Origin: an uncultured Gemmatimonadales bacterium
Lineage (GTDB): Bacteria; Gemmatimonadota; Gemmatimonadetes; Gemmatimonadales; Gemmatimonadaceae
Length of the DNA: 64,000 nt
Assembly (NCBI GenBank): GCA_963850905.1
Contig: CAWKMU010000003.1
Location: 1,536,001 to 1,600,000, forward strand
Direction: 5' to 3'
Position numbers and translations under genes: made by a program. This document shows, one piece after another, positions 11,939 to 31,558 of this stretch. Numbering within the stretch: the first letter of the stretch is position 1; each line of letters begins with the position of its first letter. The notes beneath the pieces were generated by a model, which ran no database searches, was not told the origin of the DNA, and saw only the letters and a list, made by a program, of their open reading frames with translations.

Positions 11939-14863
11939 ATGCTGACAAAGCGACGAAAGACGAGACGTCAACTTGATGTCCAGCATCAAGTGTCAGCAGC
12001 ACGCGTGTACTGGATTACCGGATTGTCGGGCGCTGGCAAGACGACCGTTGGACGCGAGTTGGTGAAGCGCCTGCATGCGGCTGGTCGCCCAGTCATTTTC
12101 CTCGACGGCGATGCGTTGCGCGCGGCGATCGCGGAAGATCTCGGCCACACTGCTGCCAACCGCCGTCGATCGGCAATGCGCAACGCGCGGCTGTGCCACT
12201 TGCTTGCTGCACAGGGTACGGACGTCGTGTGCGCCACGATCTCGCTGTTGCACGAGGTCCAGCGGTGGAATCGGGAGAACATCCCCGGCTATCGGGAGAT
12301 CTACCTTCAGGTCCCGATGGAGGAGTTGCGGCGTCGGGATAGCAAGGGCATCTACGCCCGGGCCGAGTGTGGCGATGCGCGTGACGTCGTTGGTCTTGAC
12401 GTGCCCGCGGAGGCTCCGGAGGCGCCCGATCTGGTCCTCGACAATTATGGGGCGCTCGACGTTGTGACGGCGGTCGAGCGCATCTTGGCGGTATGCGGCA
12501 CGCCGAATGGCAAGCGTGCTGGAACGCCCCTGACGCGTGTCGTCGCGTTCAAAACGAAGGCAGAGTCGTTGGAAGCGCTGGCGCCCGTGCTGCGGAATGG
12601 GCGGGTCCTGCCACAAGTCCGATTCTCCGTTGCCGCCTGGCGCTCGGACGCCGCTGGCGTGTTGGCTTCGATCAATGCGGCGCCGTGGGGTTCGGGTTCC
12701 GTCATCGTGCGGAGCAGTGCACGGAGCGAGGACGGCGCCACGAGCTCTCAAGCCGGGAAGTACGATTCCCAACTCGGCGTCGCCGGCATCGAGGCAGTGG
12801 CACAGGCCATCGACCGGGTGGTTGCCTCGTTCGCAGACGAGGGCGATGACGACGACCAGATCTTCGTGCAGCCGATGCTCGACCGCGTCGCCATGGCCGG
12901 AGTGGCCTTCTCCCGCAATCCCAGTGGTGGCGCCTATTTCGTCATCAATTACGACGACCGTTCCGGGCTCACGGATCGCGTGACGGCCGGCGTCGGGTAC
13001 AATCTCGAAACTTTTTTCTGTCTCAAATCGCGTCCGGAGGCGTGCCCGGCTTCGCTGGTGCCGGTGATCGCGCTCGTGACCGAGCTCGAGAGTCTCCTAG
13101 CGTGCGACGCGATCGACGTGGAATTTGCGATCGGCGAAGACGGGCAGTTGTACCTGCTCCAAGTCCGCCCGCTCCTCGTGGACCGCCGGGGACAGGTGGC
13201 CGACAAGGAGATCGACGCCGCAGTCGCCGATGTCGCGCGCAAAGTCGAGCTCCTCAGCCGCCCGCACCCGTACCTGCACGGCAGCCGGACGATATTCGGG
13301 GTCATGCCGGACTGGAACCCTGCCGAAATCGTCGGAGTGCGGCCCTATCCCCTCTCGTTGTCGCTCTATCGCGAGCTGATCACCGACGCGATCTGGGCGT
13401 ATCAGCGTGACAACTACGGGTACAAGAACCTTCGCAGTTTCCCGTTGCTGGTGAGTTTTCACGGACTGCCGTACATCAATGTGCGTGTGAGCTTCAACTC
13501 GTTCATCCCACACGACGTCCCCGACGATCTCGCCGGCCGGCTGGCGAACTACTACATCGACCGACTCCTTGCCGAGCCGCATCTCCACGACAAGGTCGAA
13601 TTCGAGATCATCTTTTCCTGCTACACGCTCGATTTGCCGAAGCGAATCGCGACGCTCGCCGAGCACGGGTTCTCTTCGGACGACGTGGCCGAGCTCTCGA
13701 CCGCTTTGCGGCGTCTCACCAATCGGATCATACACGGCGACACCGCACTGTGGCGGCGGGATCGCGCCAAGATCGACCTATTGGCACAGCGTCTTCCGGT
13801 GATCTGCAACGCCGACATCGACAAGGTCGGCCGCATCTACTGGCTGATCGAAGACTGCAAGCGATACGGCACGCTACCCTTTGCGGGTCTCGCGCGGGCG
13901 GGTTTCGTCGCGGTCCAGCTGCTCCAATCGTTCGTCGACGTGGGCGTTTTTAGTGCCGATGAACGTGCGACATTCATGGCGAGCGTCGATACCGTCGGAT
14001 CGCGGATCGGGCACGACTTTGCGCGTCTTCCCAAGGCGGACTTCCTCGCGCGCTATGGCCACCTCCGGCCGGGCACGTACGACATCCTATCTCCCCGCTA
14101 CGACGAGGCACCCGACCTCTATTTCGACTGGTCGAGCGCGCGACCGACGTCGCCCCCGCCGCCTCGTTTCGCCCTGTCGATCGAGCAGCTGCGCCGCATC
14201 GAGCACCTGCTCAAGGAGCACGAGCTCGACATCGACGTCTTGAGCCTGATCGAGTTCATCAAGGCCGGCATCGAGGGTCGCGAATACGCGAAGTTCGTCT
14301 TCACGCGCAGTCTGAGCGACGCGCTGACGTTGATCAGGCGGCTGGGCGAGGATCATGGTCTGTCGGCGGAGGATTGCGCGTTTCTGAGTTACGATGCCAT
14401 CCGCACGCTCTATAGCGAGAGTTGCTCGGTGCGAGAGGCGTTGCTGGAGAGCGTCGCCCACGGCCGGGAGCGGCACGCGCTCACACGAAGTCTGGTACTG
14501 CCGCCCCTCATCGCGTCGGCAGAGGATGTGTTTGCCTTTCACCTGCCGCCGAGTCAGCCCAATTTCATTACGCGCAAGAGCGTTACCGCGCCGGTGGCGT
14601 CGCTCAGCGACCCTCCCGAAAGCTTCGCCGGACGCATTCTGTTCTTGCCGAGTGCAGATCCGGGCTTCGACTGGATCTTCACGCGTGGCATCAGCGGATT
14701 CGTCACGCAATTCGGCGGCGCCAACTCACATATGGCGATCCGCGCCAGTGAGCTCGGCATCCCTGCGGTGATCGGGGCCGGTGAGGCCATGTATCAGCCG
14801 TGGAGTGTCGCGCACACGCTGTGTCTGGACTGCACGAGCCAGAGGGTTTTGGTCATCGCATGA
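11939..14863 (+). CDS. Fusion: APS-kinase-like (Cj1415-like cytidine diphosphoramidate kinase) + PEP-utilizer/PPDK-like (Cj1418-like L-glutamine kinase)
   Basis: N-terminal WITGLSGAGKTT, LDGD, RRDSKGIY (CysC fold); then TKAESL, VRSSARSED, AGKY, FVQPML, DVEFA, LLQVRPL (ATP-grasp); FGVMPDWNPAEI, YGHLRPGTYDI; C-terminal GGANSHMAIRASELGIPAVIG (phospho-His domain). True start may be GTG 11990. Confidence 0.85.
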   Translation: MLTKRRKTRRQLDVQHQVSAARVYWITGLSGAGKTTVGRELVKRLHAAGRPVIFLDGDALRAAIAEDLGHTAANRRRSAMRNARLCHLLAAQGTDVVCATISLLHEVQRWNRENIPGYREIYLQVPMEELRRRDSKGIYARAECGDARDVVGLDVPAEAPEAPDLVLDNYGALDVVTAVERILAVCGTPNGKRAGTPLTRVVAFKTKAESLEALAPVLRNGRVLPQVRFSVAAWRSDAAGVLASINAAPWGSGSVIVRSSARSEDGATSSQAGKYDSQLGVAGIEAVAQAIDRVVASFADEGDDDDQIFVQPMLDRVAMAGVAFSRNPSGGAYFVINYDDRSGLTDRVTAGVGYNLETFFCLKSRPEACPASLVPVIALVTELESLLACDAIDVEFAIGEDGQLYLLQVRPLLVDRRGQVADKEIDAAVADVARKVELLSRPHPYLHGSRTIFGVMPDWNPAEIVGVRPYPLSLSLYRELITDAIWAYQRDNYGYKNLRSFPLLVSFHGLPYINVRVSFNSFIPHDVPDDLAGRLANYYIDRLLAEPHLHDKVEFEIIFSCYTLDLPKRIATLAEHGFSSDDVAELSTALRRLTNRIIHGDTALWRRDRAKIDLLAQRLPVICNADIDKVGRIYWLIEDCKRYGTLPFAGLARAGFVAVQLLQSFVDVGVFSADERATFMASVDTVGSRIGHDFARLPKADFLARYGHLRPGTYDILSPRYDEAPDLYFDWSSARPTSPPPPRFALSIEQLRRIEHLLKEHELDIDVLSLIEFIKAGIEGREYAKFVFTRSLSDALTLIRRLGEDHGLSAEDCAFLSYDAIRTLYSESCSVREALLESVAHGRERHALTRSLVLPPLIASAEDVFAFHLPPSQPNFITRKSVTAPVASLSDPPESFAGRILFLPSADPGFDWIFTRGISGFVTQFGGANSHMAIRASELGIPAVIGAGEAMYQPWSVAHTLCLDCTSQRVLVIA

Positions 14864-15462
14864 AGGCCGTGGCCGTCACCCAGCGGGTAACGATCGTTCC
14901 AGCCTATGGCGAGCGCCGTGACTCTTTGGATCAAGCATGGACGAGGTTCTTGGCTGCCTGCGGACTGCTTCCCGTGTTGCTCCCGAATGTCACCGAGGTG
15001 GCGCTGGCCATGTGCGAGAGGGCGGGCATCGGCGGGTTGTTGTTGACCGGAGGTAACGACCTGGCGGTGCTTGGCGGCGATGCCCCGGAACGCGACGCCG
15101 TGGAAAGTGCCCTGCTCGATCTGGCCGAGCAGCGTCGCCTGCCGGTCTTGGGTGTCTGTCGCGGTATGCAAGTGATTCAGCAGCGGTTCGCGGTTCAACT
15201 ACGGCGCATCGAAGGGCATGTGGCGCAACGTCAGGTGATCCGAGTCGACGGCGACTCACGAGAGGTCAACAGCTACCATTGCTTTGGCGCAGTTGACTCG
15301 AAACCGCCGCTCAATGTCTGGGCGGTCGCGGACGACGGCGTCGTCAAGGCGATCCGACATTCGACCCGACCCGTGACCGGGATCATGTGGCACCCGGAGC
15401 GCGTGGTCCCGTTCGCGCCGGCGGACGTGCAGCTCGTCCGACAGGTGTTCGGAGTCACATGA
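14860..15462 (+). CDS. Class I glutamine amidotransferase-like gamma-glutamyl hydrolase (Cj1417-like gamma-glutamyl-CDP-amidate hydrolase)
   Basis: TQRV...YGERRDSLDQAW, LTGGND, GVCRGMQ (Cys nucleophile), NSYH, MWHPER. ATGA overlap with the upstream gene. Confidence 0.85.
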   Translation: MKAVAVTQRVTIVPAYGERRDSLDQAWTRFLAACGLLPVLLPNVTEVALAMCERAGIGGLLLTGGNDLAVLGGDAPERDAVESALLDLAEQRRLPVLGVCRGMQVIQQRFAVQLRRIEGHVAQRQVIRVDGDSREVNSYHCFGAVDSKPPLNVWAVADDGVVKAIRHSTRPVTGIMWHPERVVPFAPADVQLVRQVFGVT

Positions 15463-16238
15463 TCCGCGCCGTGATCCTCGCGGCCGGCCGCGGCAGCCGC
15501 ATGGGCCATCTGTGTGATGACCGTCCCAAGTGCCTGGTCGAGCTCGGAGGCAAACGGTTGATCGAACGCCAGATCGCTGCGCTGCGGCGCGGTGGCGTAG
15601 ACGAGATTGGCGTTGTCCGCGGCTACCGCGCAGAGATGATCACCAGTCCGAGTCTTTCCTATTTCGCCAACGACCAATGGGCCGAAACGAACATGGTGAT
15701 GTCACTGGCCACGGCCGCTCGCTGGCTGCGGTCAGGGCCGGTCATCGTGAGCTACGCGGACATTTTCTATCGTAGCGAGCTGGTACGCAGCCTGGTCGCG
15801 GCTCACGGGCGACTGGTCGTCACGTACGACCGAGACTGGCGCCGGCTGTGGACGCGTCGTTTCGCCGATCCTTTGGCCGATGCCGAAACTTTTCGGACCG
15901 ACGGCGAAGGCCGGTTGCTGGAGATCGGCGGCAAGACGTCGCGCATCGAGGAGATTGAGGGGCAGTACATGGGCCTCTTGAAATTCACTCCACCAGCGTG
16001 GAGTGCGGTCGAGGGCTTGCTTGGTGTGCTCGAGACGCCGATTCGCGATCGGCTCGATCTGACAGGACTGCTGCGCCGGCTGCTGGCGGCACGCGAGCTC
16101 CCAATAGGGGCGCTTTCCACCGATGGTCAATGGGGCGAAATCGACAATCCGGAAGACGTAGCGTTGTACCAGCGCATGGTCACTGCAGGCGAGCTCCGCC
16201 TCGAGGAGACGTCTGACAGTGAGGTGATGCCACAATAA
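15459..16238 (+). CDS. NTP-transferase, LicC-like (Cj1416-like CTP:phosphoglutamine cytidylyltransferase)
   Basis: ILAAGRGSRM, RPKCL, WAETNMVMSL, SYADI, DPLADAETF, GQYMGL, WGEID. ATGA overlap. Confidence 0.85.
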   Translation: MIRAVILAAGRGSRMGHLCDDRPKCLVELGGKRLIERQIAALRRGGVDEIGVVRGYRAEMITSPSLSYFANDQWAETNMVMSLATAARWLRSGPVIVSYADIFYRSELVRSLVAAHGRLVVTYDRDWRRLWTRRFADPLADAETFRTDGEGRLLEIGGKTSRIEEIEGQYMGLLKFTPPAWSAVEGLLGVLETPIRDRLDLTGLLRRLLAARELPIGALSTDGQWGEIDNPEDVALYQRMVTAGELRLEETSDSEVMPQ

Positions 16239-16302
16239 TGGCGATGCGTTCCGAGCCCACCGTGACAACTTCCGACCAGAGGGGTTGCCAGTGTCAGTAA
16301 CG

Positions 16303-17070
16303 ATGAAACACGGCGATTTCACGCAGGTAGCCGGCGATTACGCCCGGTTTCGGCCGAGTTACGCGCCCCAGGTCGCGACTGCCATCCTCCGTTACGTCGG
16401 GCGGGACCCAGCCAGCATCAATGCGGCCGACATCGGCGCCGGAACCGGCATTTGGACGCGGATGCTCGCAGCGCAGGGTCTGCATTCCATCGTCGCCGTG
16501 GAACCAAATGCCAACATGCGTGCGCAAGGGATCGAGACCTCGCGGGGGAGCGACATTGTGTGGCGCGATGGTTCGGCCGAAGCGACGGGATTGCCGGACC
16601 GGTCAGCCGATCTTGTCAGTATGGCGTCGTCATTTCACTGGGCCGATTTCGACAAGGCCTGCGACGAATTTCACCGTATCCTGCGGCCGGGTGGCGTCTT
16701 CGTCGCCTTGTGGAATCCGCGTCTCATCGAGGTGAACCCATTGCTCGTCGAGATCGAGGCGCAGATCACGCGGCTCAAATCTGACGTGCGCCGTGTATCA
16801 TCAGGCCGCTCTGGCATCACCGAGCGGCTGACCGATATGCTGAGCGAGAAACCGCAATTCGCTGAGGTGCTGTATCTCGAAGGTAGGCACCGCATGTCCC
16901 AGACGCCGAATCAGTATCTCGGGGCGTGGCGCTCGGTGAATGATCTCCAAGTGCAATTGGGCCCTGAACTATTCCGGAAGTTCTTGGAATTCACCGAGGA
17001 GCGCGTGTCAGGTCTGACGGCTATCGAGACAACCTATGTGACCCGGGCCTGGATCGTGCGGCGCGCCTAG
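16303..17070 (+). CDS. Class I SAM-dependent methyltransferase (Cj1419/Cj1420-like)
   Basis: MKHGDFT, RPSY, DIGAGTGIW, VEPNANMR, MASSFHW, LWNPR, AWRSVND. Start could be GTG 16291 (GAGGGG at 16279). Confidence 0.85.
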   Translation: MKHGDFTQVAGDYARFRPSYAPQVATAILRYVGRDPASINAADIGAGTGIWTRMLAAQGLHSIVAVEPNANMRAQGIETSRGSDIVWRDGSAEATGLPDRSADLVSMASSFHWADFDKACDEFHRILRPGGVFVALWNPRLIEVNPLLVEIEAQITRLKSDVRRVSSGRSGITERLTDMLSEKPQFAEVLYLEGRHRMSQTPNQYLGAWRSVNDLQVQLGPELFRKFLEFTEERVSGLTAIETTYVTRAWIVRRA

Positions 17071-17181
17071 GCGGGCTCCTCCGCGGTAGATCTATCCGCG
17101 AAGCTCTGAGTCGCCTGGCTTGCCCACAGCGATCACAGGAAGTGCGGGCTGGCGGCTCCGTCGGCAAAGTTGAGCGTGTCC

Positions 17182-18213
17182 TCACCTACTCAGACGATAG
17201 CCGATATTCTCAATCCTTTTTTGGGTTTCCGCATTGAGATCATGCATAAAGCTTCTGAATCGAGGAACCTTCTCTTCAACAGCCAAAAAGCCGTACGGCT
17301 TGCTCCTCGGACGGGCCAGACATAGGCGGCTCACATCAAGATCGACTGACATGACTTCGACGATCTTAGAAAACTCCTTGACCGGATCGATCATGAAGTC
17401 CTCGAGCCGCAACGAGAGGGTCGCGGATCGGATGTAAAGCTCCGTCTCCTCAACAAATTCCGGGAACGACAAGAATGGCGGGCCTGGTGCGGCTGCGAAG
17501 AAACGCGGGTCCCCTTCGGCAAAGGCCTTGAATTCCGAAAAATTCTGGTCCAAATCGAGACACAGATCGTCAGCGTTTTTGTACACCTGCGTGATCCCGG
17601 GGACCATGGCTTTGTCGCGAACATACCTCCGCCAGAAGACCCAATTCGTCAGCAACGAATCCAGCGGGTGCCGGTAGACGAAGATCAGATCGGCAATGCG
17701 CGACTGGACCGCCTCCAATACACGGCTCGTCAACTCTGGCAACGCCTGAGCGCGAGACACGTATTTGATCGTGGCGTGTTCGGTGTAGATCATGGACGTC
17801 GGAAGTGGACGAAATCGCATCTCATGCCGGAGATATTTCGCCCGTTCGCCAATGTGCTGCAGCAGCAGTTCATAGACATACCAACGCCCACTGCCGAACA
17901 GTCCGACGAGATACGCTGTTCTGTCGTTCCCCGGATTATGGAGTTTCCAATACCAGTCCTTATTCACCAACCGGTGGCGAACGCTTTCCAGATGGTCGCG
18001 AGGGGTTTTGCGCGCGAATTCTGCCCAGTTCTCGCGCACGCTTCGCAATTTGTCTTGGCGCGATTTCCCGGTGAATCTGATGAGCCTTCGAAATACGGAT
18101 GGCCGCATCCGCTCCGGGCGGCCGCGAGCGCCCTTGTACGTTGATCTTACCCCTCCGTCATGGTCGACCCACGCCACGGCGTTCTTGGCCGACGGTGTCG
18201 TGTGGTCGCTCAC
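17182..18213 (-). CDS. Sulfotransferase-fold (P-loop) protein
   Basis: YLVGLFGSGRW (5'-PSB-like loop), FVYRHPLDSLLT (3'-PB-like RxPxD), LRLEDFMIDP, C-terminal IENIGY. Start may be ATG 18108. Confidence 0.65.
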   Translation of the reverse strand: MSDHTTPSAKNAVAWVDHDGGVRSTYKGARGRPERMRPSVFRRLIRFTGKSRQDKLRSVRENWAEFARKTPRDHLESVRHRLVNKDWYWKLHNPGNDRTAYLVGLFGSGRWYVYELLLQHIGERAKYLRHEMRFRPLPTSMIYTEHATIKYVSRAQALPELTSRVLEAVQSRIADLIFVYRHPLDSLLTNWVFWRRYVRDKAMVPGITQVYKNADDLCLDLDQNFSEFKAFAEGDPRFFAAAPGPPFLSFPEFVEETELYIRSATLSLRLEDFMIDPVKEFSKIVEVMSVDLDVSRLCLARPRSKPYGFLAVEEKVPRFRSFMHDLNAETQKRIENIGYRLSR

Positions 18214-18592
18214 GGGCGTGGCCTCATGTCAGCCCGACCGGCCGCGGCTCCCTTTGCGCGGCCCCTTCTGGTGTCAACCATGCTCAGCCTCTCCGCACGT
18301 TTCGTGCAGGCGCAAGCGTGGGCGGAAGTCAAGCGAATACAAGTGGTTACGCCGTTTGATACCCTAATCACCTCGCGGAATATGCTGCATGAACCCCACA
18401 CGATCGATGGCGATGTGCTGCGCGCTCGCGCGCGCCATCGCGGAGCCTATCGACTGGTGCGCTTCGTCGCCGCGCAGCAGCCGGTGCCGCCCGACGACGC
18501 GTGCAGCGTCGTGGCAGGCACGACGCCGCTGATGCTGATCGCCGCTCATGCTTGTCACGCCGCGCGGATCGAGGAGACGCGTCGTTGCAGAG

Positions 18593-18608
18593 TGGCGACT
18601 CAATTGCC
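18593..18608 (+). promoter_or_regulatory. Putative sigma54 promoter
   Basis: TGGCGACTCAATTGCC upstream of the GT4 gene; IHF-like ATACAAGTGGTTA at 18337-18349. Confidence 0.4.
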
Positions 18609-18649
18609 AGAGCGCGAGGATGATGTTGCGAGAGGCCAGTAACCGGGGC

Positions 18650-19900
18650 GTGCTAGTCGGTGGTGGTGCGCCTGACGGTCCGTCATCACTCGTCAGGCGG
18701 GCCAAGCCGCTGCGGGTTCTCTACGTCGAAGCGAACGAGGATGGCACCGTCGGGGGGTCCCATCAACTTGTTTACGATCTCGCACGCAGTGTACCCCGAG
18801 ATCGCATCGATCCCGTCGTACTGTTTTATCAGAACAATGCGTTCGTGGACCGTCTGAGGAGCCACGGGGTCACTGTCCTGTTGTACGACCACTTGCGCGT
18901 GCGCGAGCGCGCGGTCAATGCAACTGGAGGGCTTTTGCGCAGGCGTGCCGAGCAGGTCGCCGCCATCGGGAGGCGCTTCCAGCTACTTCGTCAGCAAAAT
19001 ATCGGTCTGGTCCACCTGAACAATTCCCCGACCGTCGGAGTCGACGACTGGCTGCCGGCTGCGATATGCGCCAACACGCCATGCGTGGTCAACGCGGGCG
19101 GTCTGCTCGGTCGGGATCGTCGCTTCATCCATCGGGCCTTAACGCGGCGCTTTGCGCGGGTGATCGCTGTGAGCGAATACATGGCGGCCGCGCTCCGCGA
19201 GCGCGGTTATCCGGAACGCCAGATCGAATGCGTGAATCTGTCCGTCGACATCGCGCGGTTGCAATCGAGAGTCTCGGCGTCGCGGACCGAGATTCGCACG
19301 AGCCTGAACATACGGCCTGACCGAGTTGTCATCACGATGGTAGGCAACGTCCGACAGTGGAAAGGGCAGCATGTCCTGCTGGAGGCAGTTGAGCTGCTCC
19401 TGCCGGCGGTCCGGGAACGCGTCCATGTGCTATTCGCCGGCGCGGTGTCCGAGGCCGATCGTTCGTATTTCGCCCATCTGCAACAGATCGTTGAGCGCGC
19501 GCACCTGGGCGACAGAGTTCAGTTTCTTGGTGCCCGGGACGACGTTGCTGATCTCCTCGCCGCGTCGGATGTTGCAGTTCACGCGTCGATTCTGCCGGAG
19601 CCATTTGGGCTCGTAATCATCGAGGCAATGGCGCTCGGGACTCCGGTGGTCGCGGCGCGGCTCGGAGCACCGCGCGACATCGTAACCTCGGCATCGGGCC
19701 TGTTGTACGATCCAGAGTCACCACGCGAGTTGGCAGAGCGGCTTACAGAACTCGTGTTGGACGCGGACCTTCGAAAACGTTTGGGCAAAGGCGCGATCGA
19801 TCGAGCCAAGGATTTCGGAGTCGTGCGCTACATCTCGCAGATAATGGCCGTGTACGAGAAGGTAGCACCCGCGCGTGATGACGAGCGTCTGATCGTTTAA
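18650..19900 (+). CDS. GT4 glycosyltransferase
   Basis: VGGSH, GNVRQWKGQ, FLGARDDV, EPFGLVIIEAMALGTPVV. Start uncertain (18620-18650). Confidence 0.9.
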   Translation: MLVGGGAPDGPSSLVRRAKPLRVLYVEANEDGTVGGSHQLVYDLARSVPRDRIDPVVLFYQNNAFVDRLRSHGVTVLLYDHLRVRERAVNATGGLLRRRAEQVAAIGRRFQLLRQQNIGLVHLNNSPTVGVDDWLPAAICANTPCVVNAGGLLGRDRRFIHRALTRRFARVIAVSEYMAAALRERGYPERQIECVNLSVDIARLQSRVSASRTEIRTSLNIRPDRVVITMVGNVRQWKGQHVLLEAVELLLPAVRERVHVLFAGAVSEADRSYFAHLQQIVERAHLGDRVQFLGARDDVADLLAASDVAVHASILPEPFGLVIIEAMALGTPVVAARLGAPRDIVTSASGLLYDPESPRELAERLTELVLDADLRKRLGKGAIDRAKDFGVVRYISQIMAVYEKVAPARDDERLIV

Positions 19901-19968
19901 CCTCTCACTCGCAACGTTCCACTCGTCGCCGTCACACAGATTCATTTCGCGAGCCTCGCAATTCGGGG

Positions 19969-19997
19969 TTGCGAAACGTGCGTGCGGCGGTCATCCT
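19969..19997 (+). promoter_or_regulatory. Putative sigma70-type promoter of riboswitch/lipoprotein unit 1
   Basis: TTGCGA-N17-CATCCT. Hexamers and 17-bp spacing are conserved in unit 2 while the spacer sequence diverges. Confidence 0.55.
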
Positions 19998-20023
19998 ACT
20001 CGCGACAATTGATCGTCGCGTTG

Positions 20024-20151
20024 GTTGTCCCGATGTGGGCTCCCGCGACAACGGCAAACCCGGCGAAAGCCGGCGACGCAAAGCTCTGGAGGCTACCGCT
20101 CACGCAGCAACACCGCGTGAGTCATGCCAGTCCGGCTACCGAACGGACAAC
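20024..20151 (+). ncRNA. c-di-GMP-I (GEMM) riboswitch, copy 1
   Basis: GGCAAACCCGGCGAAAGCCGGCGACGCAAAGC core with GNRA loop; P3 with GGCTAC/ATGCC receptor-like element and CTCACGC/GCGTGAG stem; 3' ACCG; closing helix GTTGTCC(20024)/GGACAAC(20145). Ends just before SD AGAGGA. Confidence 0.92.
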
Positions 20152-20168
20152 TCACAGAGGACACAGCC

Positions 20169-21524
20169 ATGCGCACTGCGCACGACTGGGGCCGAGCTAT
20201 AGGCCGTCCCCGCACGTCCGCACCGGTAAGCCGCAAGTCGTACTACTTCCGCGCGATCGTCTGCGGCGCAGCTGCGGCACTCGCTGCCTGCGACAACTCC
20301 GCGAAGAACACCACCAATCCAATGGATCCGGTCGCCGCGAGTGGTAGCGGTACCTTCCAGGACGAAGCGGTCCTCGTGATGTATCACGGTGTGGCGTACC
20401 CGCAGGTCAACGTGAAGCCCTCGGCCAACGTCGACATGAAGGTCGGCGAACAGTCGACGTTTACGGCGCGCTTGAACGAGCCCAGTGGCGACGCGTGGAC
20501 CTCGTGCTGCTCGACGTGGAAGAGCTCTGATGCGAGTGTCGCGTCGGTGAGCGTCACGGGTTACGGTGTTCGCGATGGCGAGCGCGGAGCCGTTGTCGCG
20601 CACAAGTCGGGCAAGGCGACGATCACGGTTACGACGCAGAGCGGAACGAAGGGGACGCTGGATGTCACTGTTGGTGATGGCTCCTCTGGAACCGGCTCCG
20701 GTGGCTCGAGCTCCGGCGGCAGTGGCGGGTCAGGCGGCGGCTCTGGGTCACCCCCCTCGAAGACCCCCGCGAAGAGTCCGACCGCGCCACCACCCAGCGG
20801 CAGCTACCATGAGCCGTCGGGCTTCGCGACGCAAATCAACACCGGGTCGATCTCATCGACGCGTGCGGTGAACGTCCTCACCCCGTCGTCGACCAGCCCG
20901 ACTGGTGGCTCGAGCGGAAATCTCACCGCCGCGCCCGGAGGCGGTCTCCGTATGTGGTACCGTCCGAACCTAGTGGCGGGCAACTCGCCGGTCCGATTTG
21001 GGTTCGACATCCCGTCATCGGGAAGCGGCTGGTACTATCAGCGAATGCAGGTCCGTTTCTCCTCCAACTGGACCAACGGGAATAACCCGCTCGTCAAGTT
21101 GTGCGAGCCGCGAACCATGCAATCCGGCAGCCCCACGGGTCCAGACGAGAACCATGTCATCTCGGCATTCGCCAGCGGCGCGCCGACCAACGGCTATCTG
21201 GGGGTGCTGTTGCAGGGTCCCGACAACCATTTCAGGGATCTGACCGAGGAGTCGGCCGGCATGGGGAATCTGAGTGACGGGAATTGGCACACAGTGGAAG
21301 TGCTCTTCAGCCCAGAGTCGTCACCCGGTGCTGGAAATGGCAGCTACCAGGGGTGGGTCGACGGCAAGGAGGTCGCCAACTATCGCAACGTCCAGTGGCT
21401 CGCGGCGGGGAACCGAGCGGGTTGGCCCTACCTGATGTTCGATCCGGTCTACGGGGGAACGAAGAGCGCCCCAGCGCACACCATGTACTGGGACGTCAAC
21501 AACATTTTCGTGGCTACACGCTAG
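20169..21524 (+). CDS. Lipoprotein: Ig-like (Big_2) domain, Gly/Ser/Pro linker, C-terminal beta-jelly-roll (polysaccharide-lyase/ConA-like) domain; paralog 1
   Basis: Lipobox LAA-C; WKSSDASVASVS...GKATITVT; C-terminal WHTVEV...GNGSYQGWVDG...FDPVYGG...YWD. SD AGAGGA precedes ATG 20169. Confidence 0.8.
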   Translation: MRTAHDWGRAIGRPRTSAPVSRKSYYFRAIVCGAAAALAACDNSAKNTTNPMDPVAASGSGTFQDEAVLVMYHGVAYPQVNVKPSANVDMKVGEQSTFTARLNEPSGDAWTSCCSTWKSSDASVASVSVTGYGVRDGERGAVVAHKSGKATITVTTQSGTKGTLDVTVGDGSSGTGSGGSSSGGSGGSGGGSGSPPSKTPAKSPTAPPPSGSYHEPSGFATQINTGSISSTRAVNVLTPSSTSPTGGSSGNLTAAPGGGLRMWYRPNLVAGNSPVRFGFDIPSSGSGWYYQRMQVRFSSNWTNGNNPLVKLCEPRTMQSGSPTGPDENHVISAFASGAPTNGYLGVLLQGPDNHFRDLTEESAGMGNLSDGNWHTVEVLFSPESSPGAGNGSYQGWVDGKEVANYRNVQWLAAGNRAGWPYLMFDPVYGGTKSAPAHTMYWDVNNIFVATR

Positions 21525-21546
21525 TTCGTAGCACCTGACGCGACAT

Positions 21547-21581
21547 AAGAAGGGCAGGTCGAACTACGACCTGCCCTTCTT
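21547..21581 (+). terminator. Perfect 15-bp hairpin, probable terminator
   Basis: AAGAAGGGCAGGTCG-AACTA-CGACCTGCCCTTCTT just after the paralog 1 stop. Confidence 0.75.
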
Positions 21582-21837
21582 GCATCGCACAGAAGATCCG
21601 ACGCCGATTGTTGCACGACGCAGCACTCAGCGCGATGCCGGGTCGCGACGCGACGTAGTGAACCCGTGACGCGCATCGGTGAGAATGGACGTTGATCAAC
21701 TCGGTCGCGCGGATGATGTGTTGACGTCAAACGTTTTGTCGCGACTCACTCGCGTGCGCGCACATCAACGAACTCCATGCGATGCCCCACTGAACGCGCT
21801 TCTGAGACGAACCCAGCGAAAATCTTTCGTAAAGGGG

Positions 21838-21866
21838 TTGCGTATCAGACTGTTGATGGGCATCGT
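21838..21866 (+). promoter_or_regulatory. Putative sigma70-type promoter of unit 2
   Basis: TTGCGT-N17-CATCGT, followed by the same CGCGAC/GTCGCG hairpin as unit 1. Confidence 0.55.
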
Positions 21867-21892
21867 ACGCGCGACAACTGAACGTCGCGCTG

Positions 21893-22016
21893 GTTGTCCA
21901 GTGTGGGCACCCGCGACAACGGCAAACCCGGCGAAAGCCGGCGACGCAAAGCTCTGGAGGCTACCGCTCACGCACGCTGCCGCGTGAGCCACGCCAGTCC
22001 GGCTACCGAACGGACA
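21893..22016 (+). ncRNA. c-di-GMP-I (GEMM) riboswitch, copy 2
   Basis: Near-identical to copy 1; differences are mostly in the P3 loop. Upstream of SD AGAGGA and ATG 22036. Confidence 0.92.
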
Positions 22017-22035
22017 TCTCACAGAGGACACAGCC

Positions 22036-23388
22036 ATGCGCATTGCGCACGACTGGGGCCGAGCTTCGGGCCGTCCCCGCACGTCCGCCAAGGTAAGCCG
22101 AAAGTCGTCCTACGCCCGCGCGCTGCTATGTAGTGCAGCGGCTGCGCTCGCAGCGTGCGACAATTCCCCGAAAAGCGCCGCGAATCCGACGGATCCAGTC
22201 AACGCGATGGGTTCGCGTGAGAATGAGGCGGTTGGCACAGAGGTTCGCGGCGTGGCCTACCCACTGGTCACCGTGAAGCCATCGGCTAGCGTCGACATGA
22301 GTGTCGGCCAGCAGTCGACGTTCTCGGCACTGTTGAGCGAGCCGAATGGGAATTCATGGACGTCGTGCTGCTCGACGTGGACGAGTTCCGATGCGAGTAT
22401 CGCGTCGGTAAGCGCGACCGGCTACGGGGTTGAGGATGGCGAGCGTGGGATTGTTGTCGCGCACAAAGCCGGTACCGCAACGATCACGGTCACGACTCAA
22501 AGCGGAACGAGCGGCACGCTGAACGTCACCGTCGGAAGCGAGTCATCTGGGTCAGGGTCTGCTGGTGCCAGCTCCGGCGGCACTGGTGGCTCGAGTGGTG
22601 GCTCGGGGTCGGGTGGGACGCCAACGGCGAGTCCCTCGCCACCGCCACCGAGCGGTAGCTACCACCAGCCGTCGGGTTTCGTCCAGCAGGTCAATATGCC
22701 ATCGATTACATCGACTGCAGCGTTTTCCAACTTCAGTCCTACCAGCACCAGCTCGACCGGCCAGTGGAGCGGGAACCTGACTACAGTGCCTGGCGGATCC
22801 GGGTTGAGGATTACGTATCGCCCGAACCTCATGGCTGGAGGGTCTCCCGTCCGCTTCGGAATCTCTCTGGCATCAGCCGGATCGGGTTGGTACTACCAGC
22901 GCATGAAGATTCGCTTCTCGTCGAACTGGACGAATGCAAATAACCCGGTGGTGAAACTGTGCGAGCCCCAAACGGAGCAGGAGGGCAATCCGGCGGGGCC
23001 GGACGAAAACCATGTCATCTCGGCATTCGTCCACGCCGATCCGACTCAGAGCTACCTGACCGTTCTGTTGCAAGGCCCTGATAGCCACTTCCGGGATCTG
23101 ACAGAGCAACCGGTCGCTAACCCGGCTGCAAACTTGAGCGACGGGAATTGGCACACGATGGAGGTGCTGTTCGGTCCCGAGTCGTCGCCGGGTGCCGGGA
23201 ACGGAACGTACACCGGGTGGGTCGACGGCACGCAGGTCGCAAGCTACACCAACGTACAATGGCTCGCGGCCGGGAACCGAGCGGGTTGGCCGTACCTCTT
23301 GTTCGATCCGGTCTACGGCGGCATGGACAGTAGCCCGCCGTACATCATGTACTGGGACTTCGACGCCTTGTACGTCAGCACGCGCTAA
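22036..23388 (+). CDS. Lipoprotein Big_2 + lyase/ConA-like domain; paralog 2
   Basis: Lipobox LAA-C; co-linear and highly similar to paralog 1. Confidence 0.8.
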   Translation: MRIAHDWGRASGRPRTSAKVSRKSSYARALLCSAAAALAACDNSPKSAANPTDPVNAMGSRENEAVGTEVRGVAYPLVTVKPSASVDMSVGQQSTFSALLSEPNGNSWTSCCSTWTSSDASIASVSATGYGVEDGERGIVVAHKAGTATITVTTQSGTSGTLNVTVGSESSGSGSAGASSGGTGGSSGGSGSGGTPTASPSPPPPSGSYHQPSGFVQQVNMPSITSTAAFSNFSPTSTSSTGQWSGNLTTVPGGSGLRITYRPNLMAGGSPVRFGISLASAGSGWYYQRMKIRFSSNWTNANNPVVKLCEPQTEQEGNPAGPDENHVISAFVHADPTQSYLTVLLQGPDSHFRDLTEQPVANPAANLSDGNWHTMEVLFGPESSPGAGNGTYTGWVDGTQVASYTNVQWLAAGNRAGWPYLLFDPVYGGMDSSPPYIMYWDFDALYVSTR

Positions 23389-23457
23389 ATGTCTCCCGGA
23401 CAACAATCCTATAGCATGTACCGGGACGTCGATCAGATCCTTGTCAGCACGCGCTGA
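23389..23457 (+). pseudogene. Remnant duplicate of the paralog 3' end (MSPGQQSYSMYRDVDQILVSTR*)
   Basis: In frame directly after the paralog 2 TAA. Matches the paralog 3 terminus YTMYWDVDQIYVSTR* at DNA level (catgtac.gggacgtcgatcagatc...gtcagcac.cgctga). Confidence 0.7.
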
Positions 23458-23496
23458 TCGATGGCGCGGTCGGTGACCGTGGCACGTTAGAAGTTG

Positions 23497-23533
23497 GCGA
23501 GGGAGCAGGTCAAACATTGACCTGCTCCCTCGC
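23497..23533 (+). terminator. Perfect 17-bp hairpin, probable terminator
   Basis: GCGAGGGAGCAGGTCAA-ACA-TTGACCTGCTCCCTCGC then GCTCTTTC. Shares the GCAGGTC/GACCTGC core with the unit 1 hairpin. Confidence 0.7.
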
Positions 23534-23993
23534 GCTCTTTCGCGACACTTGTCTCACTGCGGTTCGACGTTGCGAAACCGTCTCAAGACCCGCTGCTTTC
23601 CGGCGACCGCGAGGTCGCCGACACCAGCGGGTGAGTGCCGCCTCCGACCACCGGTTGACATCGGCCGGCGCGGGTATCTCGCGCACCGTTCCCAACCGAC
23701 CTCTCCAGTCGTCGCTCTTCCGCGCTCGACTAGCGGGATTCCCCGCCGATCGGCACGGCTAAGGGAGGGTGCGAAGCCAGTTCAGCGGACAATTTGACTG
23801 ATCGTAGGCCTACGCCCCCATTAATAGGGGCTGGCGCTGTTGAGTCCGCTTGCTTACGTTAACTGGTAGCAAGGCTTTGGGGACGGTCGCCCGGCTGGCT
23901 CGATGTCAGGTCAAACCGCCCGACCCCAACCACGGACCGAGCAAGCGGGAGACTTCTAGATCACAGAAATGATCGCGGTGCCCCCCGAGGGCC

Positions 23994-24092
23994 TGCGACA
24001 AAGGCAAACCCGGCGAAAGCCGGGGACGCAAAGCTACGAGGCTACGGTCTGCCCTCAGAGTCGGGCATGCTATGCCAGTCGGGCCGCCGAAC
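23994..24092 (+). ncRNA. c-di-GMP-I (GEMM) riboswitch, copy 3
   Basis: GCGACAAAGGCAAACCCGGCGAAAGCCGGGGACGCAAAGC...GGCTAC...TGCCC/GGGCA...TATGCCAG...GCCG. Upstream of SD GGAGGG and ATG 24109. Confidence 0.9.
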
Positions 24093-24108
24093 AGAGCTGG
24101 AGGGGATC

Positions 24109-26007
24109 ATGGACGCTGCGATCAAACATCGCAGGCTGGCGGTCGCCGCCATCTGTCTCGTGGTGGCGGGTGGCTTTGCATGCTTCCGAGGCGACTCCCT
24201 CGTCGACCCCCCGGGGACAGCAGGCTACCGACCTCCCGACCCCCACGTAACCGCTATCACGCTCGCGCCGACTTCAGTCAATGCGCCGACGGGCGCTCAA
24301 GTCCACATTTCGGCTGACCCTATTGGCCCTTCTGGCGCTCCCGTGGCGGCCGATGTCGTCGCTTGGGTGTCGTCCGACCCCGATGCCGCAACTGTGTCGG
24401 GCTCAGGGATGGTCTCGCTACTTCACCGGGGCAAAACGACGATTACCGCCATCGCGGACGGAGTGACGGCGTCCGTCGCAGCCGTGGCCGAGGCACCGCT
24501 GGCGGCTTCGATGACGGTCACGCCGAGCACCAGCTTGATCGAGGCGGGTCAGCAGGTGCAGCTGATCGCGGTCGCGTACGATGCAACCGGTTCCGTCGAC
24601 TCCGGCGTGACGGTAACTTGGTCGTCCTCAAACACGGGAACGGTATCGGTGTCCAGCGGGGGTCTGGTGACGGCGATCGCGGTCGGCGTGGCAACCATTA
24701 CGGCGTCATCCGGCAGTGTGCGCTCGACGGCGACGATCCAAGTCACCTCCTCTACACCCGCAGTGGCGACGGTATCGGTCGCGCCGAACACGTCGTCGCT
24801 TTATCCTGGGAGCAATGAGCAGTTGACGGCTACGCTAAAGGACGCGGCGGGCGACATCCTGGGTGGCATCCCCGTAGCATGGTCGACATCGAGCGCGGGT
24901 GTTGCTTCCATTTCCGCTAGCGGTGTCGCGTTGGCGAACGCCATCGGATCGGCAACCATAACTGCGACTGCTGGTGGACACAGCGGCACCGCGACAGTGG
25001 ACGTCACGGCTCCGGTCGTCGCGTCGGTGTCTGTCAACCCCAGTTCTGGAACGATTAGCATCGGGCAAATCGAGCAATTCACGGCCACTCCCCTCGACGC
25101 CCAAGGCGCGCGGCTGAGCGTTCAAGTTTCGTGGAGCTCTAGCGACCCGAGCATGGCGTCGGTGTCGGCGAGCGGCGCCGTAACGGGTGATGCGGCGGGA
25201 TCGGTCAGTATCACCGCATCAGCAGGCGGCGTCACCGGCGCCGCGGCGGTGACGGTGCAATCGGGGCCGCCTGGTGGGTACCACGAGCCCTCAGGCATGG
25301 CGACTCAGATCAACACGGGGCCGATTACGTCGACGAGCGTGGTGACCACCTTCAGCCCGTCCACGATGACCTCTACCGGTGAGTGGATTGGGAACCTGAG
25401 TCTTGTGCCGGGAGGGACTGGCCTTCGGCTGACGTACACCACGAGCCTCGCGGCTGGCAACTCGCCGGTGCGCTTTGGCCACGGAATCGCGTCCGCGGGG
25501 ACGGGTTGGTACTATCAGCGCATGAAGGTCCGTTTCTCGTCGAACTGGACCAACGGGAACAATCCAATCATCAAAATGTGTGAGCCGCGGACCGAGCAGA
25601 CTGGTAGCGGTACGGGGCCCAACGAGAACCATGTCATTGGCGGCTGGGCCGGCAGCGCTCCCACCAAGAGCTATCTAACGGTGTTGTTGCAAGGCCCGAA
25701 TAACAATTTCCGGGACCTGATCGAACAGCCGCAGAGTAATCCTCAAGCGAATATGAGTGACGGGAACTGGCACGTCATGGAGGTGCTCTTCGGTCCCGAG
25801 TCATCCCCGGGTGCCGGCAATGGGACGTACCAGGGCTGGGTCGACGGCGTGCAAATCGCGAATTACACCAACGTGCTCTGGCTCGCGCCCGGCAACAATG
25901 TCGGCTGGCCATACCTCATGTTCGACCCGGTGTACGGTGGGACCAAGAGCAGTCCGCCCTATACCATGTACTGGGACGTCGATCAGATCTACGTCAGCAC
26001 CCGCTGA
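24109..26007 (+). CDS. Lipoprotein with about four Big_2 Ig-like repeats + lyase/ConA-like domain; paralog 3
   Basis: Signal peptide ending GFA-C; four W(x)SS...V..G.V...G..TITA repeats; same C-terminal domain (YHEPSG...GWYYQRMKVRFSSNW...YWDVDQIYVSTR). Confidence 0.82.
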   Translation: MDAAIKHRRLAVAAICLVVAGGFACFRGDSLVDPPGTAGYRPPDPHVTAITLAPTSVNAPTGAQVHISADPIGPSGAPVAADVVAWVSSDPDAATVSGSGMVSLLHRGKTTITAIADGVTASVAAVAEAPLAASMTVTPSTSLIEAGQQVQLIAVAYDATGSVDSGVTVTWSSSNTGTVSVSSGGLVTAIAVGVATITASSGSVRSTATIQVTSSTPAVATVSVAPNTSSLYPGSNEQLTATLKDAAGDILGGIPVAWSTSSAGVASISASGVALANAIGSATITATAGGHSGTATVDVTAPVVASVSVNPSSGTISIGQIEQFTATPLDAQGARLSVQVSWSSSDPSMASVSASGAVTGDAAGSVSITASAGGVTGAAAVTVQSGPPGGYHEPSGMATQINTGPITSTSVVTTFSPSTMTSTGEWIGNLSLVPGGTGLRLTYTTSLAAGNSPVRFGHGIASAGTGWYYQRMKVRFSSNWTNGNNPIIKMCEPRTEQTGSGTGPNENHVIGGWAGSAPTKSYLTVLLQGPNNNFRDLIEQPQSNPQANMSDGNWHVMEVLFGPESSPGAGNGTYQGWVDGVQIANYTNVLWLAPGNNVGWPYLMFDPVYGGTKSSPPYTMYWDVDQIYVSTR

Positions 26008-26035
26008 TTAGCAGACGGGGCAGGCCCGCCGAGCC

Positions 26036-28212: not shown

Positions 28213-28253
28213 GAGTCGTGGCACGCGAGCGAGGGGCGTGTCTCGCGGTTCCT

Positions 28254-30305: not shown

Positions 30306-30424
30306 AATCGAAGATTGGCTGGCTAGAGTACGATATCAAGTGCCGCAACCCGGTGAAGCGGCGTTGTGACACGGCGGTAAGTTGGGGGTGTGTGCCGGAC
30401 GCCGGCACACGCCCACCTTGGCTG

Positions 30425-30440
30425 CGCAAGGGACGCGCCG
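30425..30440 (-). promoter_or_regulatory. Putative sigma54 promoter
   Basis: Minus strand CGGCGCGTCCCTTGCG, about 50 bp from the palindrome at 30490. Confidence 0.55.
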
Positions 30441-30489
30441 TCGGGTTGAAGTCTTGAATGCTGGACGAACGATATCGGCCGTTGGCACC

Positions 30490-30507
30490 TGTCGGATCTG
30501 CGCGACA
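30490..30507. promoter_or_regulatory. Enhancer-like palindrome (one mismatch)
   Basis: TGTCGG ATCTGC GCGACA in the divergent intergenic region. Confidence 0.5.
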
Positions 30508-30551
30508 GTCGATTGTTTGTAGGCCTGGCGGCTGACTATCCATCCAAGCGA

Positions 30552-31505: not shown

Positions 31506-31558
31506 TCGTAAATACTTGTTGCATAAAGACTTACATGGCAATATGTTGAGAGGGGTCG

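Follow-up and report, generated by a model that had tools for sequence, protein, structure and literature searches.

The window, the whole 64,000-nucleotide stretch of DNA that was analysed, carries a donor cassette at 11939-17070, in which ORF calls and Pfam matches identify four co-oriented plus-strand genes with five domains. ATGA stop/start overlaps join genes A and B (14860-14863) and genes B and C (15459-15462), and 64 nt separate gene C from the methyltransferase gene D, which confirms the arrangement described in the first-pass annotation. That annotation also regarded the pathway within these limits as apparently complete, but it overlooked the transferase, which is probably encoded by the adjacent ORF, gene E, convergent with the operon. 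In a blastn comparison with 159 fetched loci, DNA similarity sets in close to where gene A begins and runs out in the 5' portion of gene E, and coverage is zero at the points sampled in 8000-11900 and 18100-21000.

11939..14863, plus strand: gene A, 974 aa, fusion of a Cj1415-type nucleotide 3'-kinase and a Cj1418-type L-glutamine kinase
14860..15462, plus strand: gene B, 200 aa, class I glutamine-amidotransferase-type hydrolase, probable gamma-glutamyl-CDP-amidate hydrolase (Cj1417-like)
15459..16238, plus strand: gene C, 259 aa, NTP transferase, probable CTP:phosphoglutamine cytidylyltransferase (Cj1416-like)
16303..17070, plus strand: gene D, 255 aa, class I SAM methyltransferase starting MKHGDFT; alternative TTG start at 16285
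17182..18213, minus strand: gene E, at most 343 aa, sulfotransferase-fold protein, probable phosphoramidate transferase
11939..18050, no strand: extent of the portable module (blastn similarity to the 159 loci)
18548-19900: GT4 (context, Pfam)
31590-32996: Wzy_C (context, Pfam)
38233-39936: Wzx-like (context, Pfam)
57563-58585: priming transferase (context, Pfam)
58470-59405: Wza-like (context, Pfam)
61068-63548: Wzc-like (context, Pfam)

Pfam assigns APS_kinase (aa 23-168), PPDK_N (aa 253-350) and PEP-utilizers (aa 898-966) to gene A, Peptidase_C26/GATase to gene B, NTP_transf_3 to gene C and Methyltransf_11 to gene D, and it marks the window as a large glycan-synthesis region with GT2, GT4, GT-C, Wzx-, Wzy-, Wza- and Wzc-like genes. 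The glycan-synthesis region at 18548..63548 lies outside the module and is a candidate source of the acceptor.

Donor-forming enzymes

Gene A comprises a 3'-kinase (aa ~18-185) followed by a glutamine kinase (aa ~202-974) with ATP-grasp, central and C-terminal phospho-His domains, and its catalytic motifs, a P-loop at aa 28 and His931, are intact. The glutamine kinase domain belongs to NF004508 (925 bits, cut-off 501), a model that C. jejuni P0211 (779 aa) matches with 1172, and the two proteins are identical at 317/787 positions (40%) over the full length of this domain, with His931 corresponding to His737. We take P0211 to be Cj1418 and its His737 to be the phospho-His, on the basis of length, species and synteny. 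The central region is strongly conserved with the C. jejuni protein, and the DWNPAE motif is found in 83/84 loci. Readings of gene A as PEP synthase/PPDK (56-59 against PEP synthase cut-offs of 598-740) or as rifampin phosphotransferase (Rph, 45 against 999) were rejected; in the former case, the His domain also extends over aa 898-966 in a protein of 974 aa and leaves no space for the pyruvate-binding C-terminal domain. The 3'-kinase domain, in turn, scores 175 bits with NF004041 (cut-off 127), which places it among the cassette-type kinases, as this is the top model also for the three Campylobacterales cassette kinases that were scanned (235-275), with 35% identity to a Campylobacterales cassette kinase. 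Its TISL and VVGLD motifs are also those of cassette kinases (TISM and VVGID in Campylobacterales), whereas solved APS kinases carry SFVSPY/SAISPY and FTGID-type motifs instead. As a true APS kinase (CysC) it falls short throughout (TIGR00455 (apsK), 112 against 138.7; PRK00889, 115 against 244; PRK03846, 101 against 163). The fusion of the two kinases is present in 47/79 related loci.

The top NCBIfam match of gene B, NF045546, reaches 114 bits and leads the next model by 67 bits, yet it stays below the cut-off of 250, which leaves the protein outside this equivalog family though the triad Cys100-His178-Glu180 is intact. Several of the Campylobacterales hydrolases, to which gene B is 27-32% identical, exceed that cut-off. 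Although outside the family, gene B probably functions like a gamma-glutamyl-CDP-amidate hydrolase, judging by its sequence; PuuD gamma-glutamyl-GABA hydrolase was rejected (NF008471, 40.7 bits against 266). Gene C is orthologous to the cytidylyltransferase of the Campylobacterales cassette L098 (33% over 256 columns, E 2e-51), and no dedicated family model was present among the NCBIfam matches of the window and Campylobacterales proteins. LicC was rejected for gene C, with 1jyk aligning only to aa 2-112 at E 5.9e-10, an E-value from a search space different from that of the L098 comparison. Gene D shares 37-41% full-length identity with the MKQGDF-type genes of Campylobacterales cassettes and 32% with C. 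jejuni P0246; it belongs to the methyltransferase family that occurs in Campylobacter MeOPN loci, from which a role in O-methylation can be inferred only weakly.

Taken at the level of sequence, the cassette very probably makes the activated P-N donor known from the Campylobacter capsule. Following the glutamine kinase (step 1), gene C would convert phosphoglutamine and CTP to CDP-L-glutamine (step 2), gene B would remove glutamate to leave cytidine diphosphoramidate (step 3), and the N-terminal kinase of gene A would add a 3'-phosphate, yielding 3'-phospho-CDP-amidate, a shape mimic of PAPS (step 4). That steps 1-4 operate here as in C. jejuni, for whose orthologues they have been shown (PMC11800397; Borg preprint, bioRxiv 10.1101/2024.11.05.622173), is in our view highly likely. 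Gene D may O-methylate the phosphoramidate (step 6), for which we would give even chances. The match to the MeOPN pathway proposed in the first-pass annotation thus holds for all four donor activities (NF004508, NF004041 and the similarity to L098), and comparison with the Campylobacterales enzymes gives a better fit than CysC, PEP synthase, PuuD or LicC; the methyl step is not established, because Cj1419/20 have no functional assignment according to PMC11800397.

Full-length homologues of all four donor-making activities of C. jejuni (Cj1415-Cj1418) are present at 27-40% identity, and the order glutamine kinase-hydrolase-cytidylyltransferase is common to the cassette and L098. In contrast to C. 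jejuni, the glutamine kinase carries the 3'-kinase as an N-terminal fusion, a single methyltransferase takes the place of two methyltransferase-like genes (Cj1419/Cj1420), there is no NF058596/DUF2972 transferase, and the genes are surrounded by a glycan region of the Wzy type, in a genome with 63% GC, instead of belonging to a kps capsule locus. The Borg cluster Cobalt 308-311, from an archaeal extrachromosomal element, likewise has a Cj1416-1418-like set in a surface-glycan region, predicted only, but one cytidylyltransferase is fused to a PEP mutase and the available text of the preprint mentions neither a 3'-kinase nor a sulfotransferase-fold transferase (bioRxiv 10.1101/2024.11.05.622173). 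TalE of phosphoramidon/talopeptin biosynthesis is, like gene A, a PPDK-like kinase forming an N-P bond, but it acts on a dipeptide amine within a three-gene natural-product cluster that has no nucleotide-activated donor, and it is <20% identical to Cj1418 (PMC6482885).

Gene E and the transfer step

Gene E, the likelier start of which is the ATG at 18108 (308 aa), has no match in Pfam or NCBIfam searches, NF058596 included. Its AF2 model (pLDDT 91.7) finds PAPS sulfotransferases as top Foldseek and VIA matches (Z 13.3, rmsd 3.6, 199 aligned), and the P-loop alpha/beta fold together with motifs for binding the 5'- and 3'-phosphates places it in the sulfotransferase fold superfamily. A P-loop-like motif at aa 104, His146 and the 3'-phosphate-binding-type motif at aa 181 are invariant or nearly so in its relatives. 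With SULT7A1 (5x2b), StaL (2ov8), the olefin-synthase ST domain (4gox), TPST and heparan 3-OST it shares the fold (Z 12-13), the conserved His and the 3'-phosphate-binding-type motif; unlike these PAPS enzymes, to which it is only 10-19% identical, it has no Pfam sulfotransferase match, is linked to a phosphoramidate donor cassette and lies in a genome in which a PAPS supply was not found. The fold by itself indicates neither function nor donor, and the genomic context points away from PAPS.

The Campylobacter protein P0277 exceeds the cut-off of NF058596, 'O-methyl phosphoramidate transferase' (680 > 600), and the model of its C-terminal 390 aa (pLDDT 88.8) has sulfotransferases in its top 17 VIA matches (best Z 10.9, rmsd 4.3, 203 aligned), while Foldseek with the Campylobacter transferase model returned nothing at E <= 0.001 (best 0.015). 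Like gene E, Cj1421/Cj1422 (NF058596, DUF2972) adjoin donor genes and are predicted to adopt a sulfotransferase fold, in which strand 1 is followed by a P-loop and an R-[DH]-P motif is present, but they are ~600 aa long with an N-terminal region of ~240 aa that gene E (~300 aa) lacks. Comparison by hhalign detects no similarity between gene E and the known MeOPN transferases (probability 0.15%), and a local DUF2972-type profile has no match in the genome of the window. Because the sulfotransferase fold is shared by the curated MeOPN transferase from Campylobacter that was modelled, gene E is the probable transferase of the phosphoramidate to a surface sugar, using 3'-phospho-CDP-amidate as a PAPS mimic. 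It would hold the 3',5'-bisphosphate part as sulfotransferases hold PAP, pass the phosphoramidate to a hydroxyl and release cytidine 3',5'-bisphosphate (step 5); given the fold, the linkage and the fold common to known transferases, we consider this step likely. The attachment of phosphoramidate appears never to have been reconstituted.

The gene E family adjoins the cassette in 36/79 related loci and, in the reverse search, core cassette genes lie in 15/19 gene-E loci having at least 3 kb on both sides. A sulfotransferase-fold gene of any family was found in 58/79 loci, compared with 56 Sulfotransfer_3 matches in ~211 Mb of such genomes, and was not found in the other 21/79; it accompanies 53/70 loci with the 3'-kinase and 5/9 without. 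A second gene-E copy (57%) in the genome of the window has no cassette beside it. Further gene-E fusions, read by eye, are to GT2/methyltransferase domains or to amphipathic coiled-coil repeats suggesting a membrane glycan.

Distribution, acceptor and alternative readings

In 79 related loci, the gene for the glutamine kinase is again accompanied by the cassette set (kinase in 70, hydrolase in 65, cytidylyltransferase in 71, methyltransferase in 64). Because these loci share descent through the cassette, the counts are not independent. The clustering is not due to chance, as the set is conserved across phyla, and occurrence is patchy (2/61 relatives; 2/301 genomes of the phylum). The modification was initially called rare, which is overstated, as GTDB species-representative genomes contain at least 445 stretches that match and homologues from outside Campylobacter have already been published for Borgs (bioRxiv 10.1101/2024.11.05.622173). 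On balance, we favour a self-contained, horizontally mobile module that builds a phosphoramidate group and transfers it onto a probable surface glycan.

Here, a cell-surface glycan would be the likeliest acceptor, an assignment that we hold tentatively and at about one chance in two. It agrees with the glycan-region setting, which recurs in L006, L007, L014, L015, L031, L037 and others, with glycan neighbours in 19/32 more distant loci, and with the GT2 domain fused to the gene-E family member of L001. Pointing instead to a non-EPS target (LPS, a different lipid-linked glycan, a glycoprotein or a small molecule), with the donor pathway and gene E transfer intact and the glycan location incidental, are the end of DNA similarity at the module's own edges, the nearest neighbours in L001-L044 (mainly efflux, hydrolase, kinase and transposase genes, with 10/109 for glycan synthesis) and the gene E model, which has no transmembrane segment, so that the protein should act in the cytoplasm; we regard this as unlikely. 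Glycan-synthesis genes are not kept beside the cassette in relatives, only 12/47 fused-type loci, a lower bound, showing glycan genes nearby, and the Wzy/Wzx core lies 14-45 kb away. Of the proposal that a Wzy-type EPS is the acceptor, the glycan region stands, but DNA similarity covers the cassette only and the link is circumstantial, because the cassette is mobile and its position in close relatives is mostly elsewhere than in glycan loci. Still further from the glycan, phosphoramidate might be put on DNA or protein by a defence or regulatory system, an idea raised by 6/36 loci in which a BREX BrxC-like ATPase, represented by its N-terminal half, is fused ahead of the gene-E domain (270-360 bits, cut-off 400) and by the non-glycan position of most close relatives. 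The window gene E lacks this fusion, the other fusions suggest a membrane glycan and the sole characterised system acts on capsule, which makes the idea very improbable; we think it equally improbable that the BrxC-fused members themselves modify DNA or protein rather than glycan.

The sulfotransferase fold of gene E, the APS_kinase Pfam membership of its partner kinase and the ATP sulfurylase present in 23/35 gene-E genomes would also fit a true PAPS sulfotransferase, in which case the kinase would make PAPS, perhaps also the amidate, the glycan would be sulfated and an unlinked enzyme would transfer the P-N group. However, the kinase stays under every true APS-kinase cut-off and over the model best matched by Campylobacterales cassette kinases, and its domain is the single real APS_kinase match of its genome. 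That genome (82% complete) has no PF01507 or PF01747 match and ATP sulfurylase was not found in it, just as neither CysD nor Sat was found in 12/35 genomes, themselves incomplete, that have the cassette and the gene E family. Cytosolic sulfotransferases have a lysine-bearing P-loop motif, whereas that of gene E reads G-x-G-R, and gene E shares its fold with the known family of MeOPN transferases, all of which renders this reading improbable. Slightly less credit is due to drifted enzymes (27-40% identity to those characterised) that use a different amide or amine or a different nucleotide, or that end in another phosphorus-containing group, e.g. methyl phosphate: gene B does lie under its equivalog cut-off and no hydrolase was found in the fetched stretch of some relatives that otherwise carry the cassette (e.g. 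L013, L020, L021, L024, L056), but the conservation of the glutamine-kinase central region, DWNPAE included, and the retention of all parts together argue otherwise. Finally, the generic Pfam labels would allow an ordinary CysC, PEP synthase or rifampin phosphotransferase, PuuD, LicC and generic methyltransferase gathered by chance, a reading that scores far under the family cut-offs and conservation across phyla effectively refute.

Beyond this locus, we lean slightly towards the view that much of the sulfotransferase fold superfamily, so far unrecognised as such, consists of phosphoramidyl transferases using 3'-phospho-CDP-amidate as a PAPS mimic, with a portable donor-plus-transferase cassette having spread P-N decoration. 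If so, they would include the Pfam-less family of gene E, two Sulfotransfer_1/_3-labelled families and the Campylobacter DUF2972 MeOPN transferases, and P-N decoration would extend across many soil bacterial phyla, masked by 'cysC / sulfotransferase / cysQ' labels. CysQ-like phosphatases, which would clear 3',5'-bisphosphate, occur in 11/79 loci.

Donor genes of the cassette

The four-gene layout and the translational coupling of the first three genes, as proposed by the first-pass annotation, are borne out by the ORF coordinates, by ATGA overlaps at the A/B and B/C junctions and by the Pfam domains. The cassette and its convergent neighbour are as follows:

11939-14863, plus strand: gene A, 974 aa, Pfam APS_kinase, PPDK_N and PEP-utilizers
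14860-15462, plus strand: gene B, 200 aa, Pfam Peptidase_C26/GATase
15459-16238, plus strand: gene C, 259 aa, Pfam NTP_transf_3
16303-17070, plus strand: gene D, 255 aa, Pfam Methyltransf_11
17182-18213, minus strand: gene E, convergent, no Pfam match

A promoter and terminator scan of 11500-18700 returned no signal exceeding that of shuffled sequence. On NF004508 (cut-off 501), residues 202-973 of gene A scored 925 bits, whereas the PEP synthase and Rph models, with cut-offs of 598-1700, gave them no more than 31-59 bits. A 779-aa C. jejuni protein (P0211, from a cluster of 4885) reached 1172 bits on NF004508 and aligned end to end with gene A (317/787 identities), such that His931 of gene A faces His737 of P0211; we take P0211 to be Cj1418 and His737 to be the phospho-His, both in agreement with synteny. 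The N-terminal kinase of gene A lies above the cut-off of NF004041 (175 > 127) and below the true APS-kinase models, a pattern shared by three Campylobacterales cassette kinases, and it carries TISL and VVGLD at the positions where APS kinases of known structure show SFVSPY/SAISPY and FTGID-type motifs. A scan of GTDB species genomes gave at least 445 matching stretches; among the best 79 loci, which were kept, the two kinases are fused in 47.

For gene B, which has an intact Cys-His-Glu triad, the top model was the gamma-glutamyl-CDP-amidate hydrolase NF045546 (114 bits, under the cut-off of 250), while the PuuD model gave 41 bits. A Campylobacterales cassette, L098, holds the entire reference set at one locus, namely a transferase, two methyltransferases, glutamine kinase, hydrolase (314 bits), cytidylyltransferase and kinase. 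Gene C is 33% identical to its cytidylyltransferase over 256 columns, and the match of gene C to LicC is confined to aa 2-112. Gene D shares 37-41% identity with MKQGDF-type methyltransferases of Campylobacterales cassettes. A generic reading of genes A to C as CysC, PEP synthase, PuuD and LicC was rejected because of the low scores on the generic models and the partial LicC match.

According to the available part of PMC11800397, Cj1415-1418 produce CDP-phosphoramidate 3'-phosphate out of glutamine, ATP and CTP. The proposed correspondence to the C. jejuni pathway stands for the donor enzymes, through the orthology of genes A, B and C, but not for methylation by Cj1419/20 as an established step, since the same part of that source gives neither gene a functional assignment; the likeness of gene D to Cj1419/20 is for this reason one of homology only. 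By analogy, the C-terminal part of gene A would phosphorylate glutamine with ATP, gene C would convert the resulting Gln-phosphate to CDP-Gln, gene B would split this into CDP-amidate and glutamate, and the N-terminal part of gene A would form 3'-phospho-CDP-amidate. These four steps, demonstrated with the C. jejuni enzymes, very probably occur here as well, judging from the sequences. Gene E would then transfer the phosphoramidate group onto a hydroxyl, freeing cytidine 3',5'-bisphosphate, a role that we consider likely, and gene D might optionally add an O-methyl group.

Gene E as candidate transferase

The donor pathway is established chemistry found in a new setting, and one more occurrence of it is modest news; the interest lies in the candidate transferase and in a fold common to it and the known O-methyl phosphoramidate (MeOPN) transferases. 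Gene E, which encodes a small protein that seems to be soluble, had no significant match in Pfam, NCBIfam or PDB sequences. It adjoins the cassette in 36 of the best 79 loci, and its family is found in 0/300 other genomes of the phylum. Conversely, when metagenome loci are chosen by gene E alone, 34 of 80 hold core cassette genes, many of the contigs being short, and among contigs with at least 3 kb on both sides of gene E the fraction is 15/19. The family is small, with 125 representatives after clustering at 50% identity, a good many of which are fragmentary, and conserves G-x-x-G-[ST]-G-R, a His and R-H-P-x-D-S. Its language-model neighbours include Sulfotransfer_1 and Sulfotransfer_3 clusters. 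With the gene E model (pLDDT 91.7), every row listed by Foldseek was a PAPS sulfotransferase, as were the top 21 rows by VIA (best Z 13.3, rmsd 3.6, 199 aligned).

A second family member, 57% identical, lies in the host genome at G000:C3:684413-685627 (minus strand; locus L102), with no donor genes in the 20 kb fetched. At six loci (L004, L012, L020, L022, L028 and L036), proteins of 924-1026 aa end in a gene-E-type domain and begin with ~550 aa that match the N-terminal half of BREX BrxC (NF033441, 270-360 bits, cut-off 400); an amphipathic/coiled-coil unit, repeated 1-3 times in other members, links the two parts. At L001:16274-18985 (minus strand), a 903-aa protein combines a methyltransferase, a GT2 and a gene-E-type domain and recalls, by eye, glycan chain-terminating enzymes.

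The sulfotransferase fold and sulfation as an alternative

P0277, a Campylobacter-type protein, scored above the cut-off of NF058596, the curated model for 'O-methyl phosphoramidate transferase' (680 > 600). The model of its C-terminal 390 residues (pLDDT 88.8) matched sulfotransferases in the top 17 rows by VIA (best Z 10.9, rmsd 4.3, 203 aligned); Foldseek on this DUF2972 model gave none at E <= 0.001, the best row having E 0.015 and the weak rows being mostly sulfotransferases. Profile-profile comparison detected no similarity between the gene E and DUF2972 families. Since both models match sulfotransferases, gene E and the genetically defined MeOPN transferase family seem to share a fold, which would explain the otherwise odd, PAPS-like 3'-phosphate on the donor. 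In the available part of PMC11800397, the transferases Cj1421 and Cj1422 are known from knockouts only and 3'-phospho-CDP-amidate is merely the 'likely donor'. A search of literature that excludes most subscription papers found no link in print between the sulfotransferase fold and MeOPN transferases or phosphoramidate transfer. The part of PMC5808241 consulted places a 'transmembrane domain' after residue 244 of MeOPN transferases; in P0277 (L098:3202-5046) this overlaps the modelled first core beta-strand and P-loop, and may therefore be no membrane span.

A sulfotransferase fold could also be taken to mean sulfation with PAPS as donor. Loci without gene E often have another sulfotransferase-fold family adjoining the cassette (Sulfotransfer_3-type, Sulfotransfer_1-type or DUF2972), and by local profiles such a gene of any family is present at 58 of the best 79 loci; for comparison, 56 Sulfotransfer_3 matches fall in ~211 Mb of 35 such genomes (our sum, with a detector that differs from the locus profiles). 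The gene accompanies 53 of 70 loci with the 3'-kinase versus 5 of 9 without, several kinase-negative loci being incomplete. CysQ-like genes, found at 11 of these best 79 loci, are compatible with the by-product of either donor. Among the 35 genomes of the 36 gene-E loci, CysD occurs in 16 and Sat in 7, as a sulfating system would need, but 12 have neither (completeness not given), and the host genome, 82% complete, has no match to PF01507, PF01747 or PF13469, its sole real APS_kinase match being gene A. This survey leans towards a donor other than PAPS. TagF-like (Glyphos_transf) genes adjoin the cassette at L073, L075 and L079, with a Pfam match for two L073 proteins, and are a possible second transferase type.

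If phosphoramidate transfer is correct, P-N decoration would be common in environmental bacteria and numerous sulfation annotations in genomes would want revision; gene E, from a non-pathogen, would also be suited to probing the transfer step.

Mobility, acceptor and setting

The closest among the matches listed have ~75-89% best-segment identity and come from Acidobacteria, Gemmatimonadales, Binataceae, Eremiobacteraceae, Isosphaeraceae, Actinomycetota and Alpha-/Gammaproteobacteria. Full-length glutamine kinase is present in 2/61 genomes among the host's relatives, its own included, and in 2/301 genomes of the phylum. DNA similarity to 159 fetched loci spans ~11900-12000 to ~17900-18050 and is zero across the flanking genes; by its sequence, the cassette is a portable module. 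It differs from the C. jejuni pathway in its fused kinases, its other transferase family, its mobility and its occurrence in environmental bacteria. In the parts of the sources available, orthologues are reported in 13/30 Campylobacter strains and phosphoramidates lacking the methyl group in the LPS of Xanthomonas and Shewanella (PMC3907429), a Borg preprint describes a cluster resembling Cj1416-1418, and the glutamine kinase is described as specific to C. jejuni in a 2022 review (PMC9561416); related material is in PMC6482885, PMC6429109 and PMC9961378. Among titles and abstract openings, most subscription papers excluded, no report of such cassettes in soil bacteria was found. MeOPN serves as a receptor for Campylobacter phages (PMC5808241, in part), so a cassette that moves between genomes may modulate how sensitive soil communities are to phage.

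At 55.5%, the GC content of gene E is below that of genes A-D (61-64%), as would fit its acquisition or exchange separately from the rest of the module. At L013, L020, L021, L024 and L056, the kinases, cytidylyltransferase and gene E are present and the hydrolase was not found within the fetched stretch. A protein of ~430 aa that matches neither Pfam nor NCBIfam, metallophosphoesterase-like by eye, accompanies the cassette and gene E at 12 of the best 79 loci (e.g. L023:15946-17226, L001:14708-16018) and was not found in the host genome.

The remaining window is a glycan-synthesis region by Pfam (GT2, GT4, GT-C, Wzy_C, Wzx-, Wza- and Wzc-like genes), the Wzy/Wzx core lying 14-45 kb from the cassette. 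Decoration of an EPS, as first suggested, is plausible in this setting, but the case is circumstantial. With 21 window glycan proteins as queries, and counts being lower bounds, glycan genes lie near at least 12 of 47 fused-type loci (at least 11 of 34 long ones) versus at least 19 of 32 others, within the best 79. Among 109 nearest neighbours at 40 of loci L001-L044, restricted to uncut ORFs of at least 180 aa outside three recurring clusters, 10 proteins (6 loci) belong to glycan-synthesis families at E <= 1e-15, and transposase or resolvase genes occur at 3 loci. The gene-E-type fusions include one relative with methyltransferase and GT2 and six behind half a BrxC-like ATPase. A glycan may be the likeliest acceptor. 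In Pseudomonas (L075, L077), the cassette adjoins, by eye, FlgK/FlgL-like flagellar hook genes, which suggests a flagellar glycosylation island.

Immediately upstream of the cassette, an LMW phosphatase/ArsC-like gene (11077-11565, plus strand) falls below the NCBIfam ArsC cut-offs and is beside the cassette in 0/79 of the best loci (of at least 445). Two long ORFs without Pfam match (39860-43061, minus strand; 535 and 564 aa) lie within the glycan region. At 2951-10790, four PMT_2-type (GT-C) membrane glycosyltransferase ORFs surround a GT2, and 7299-8123 and 6516-7199 in this stretch may be a single split gene. Three tandem Ig-like (Big_2) paralogues occupy 20124-26007 (plus strand), the first two ~70% identical and one member with a weak polysaccharide-lyase match.
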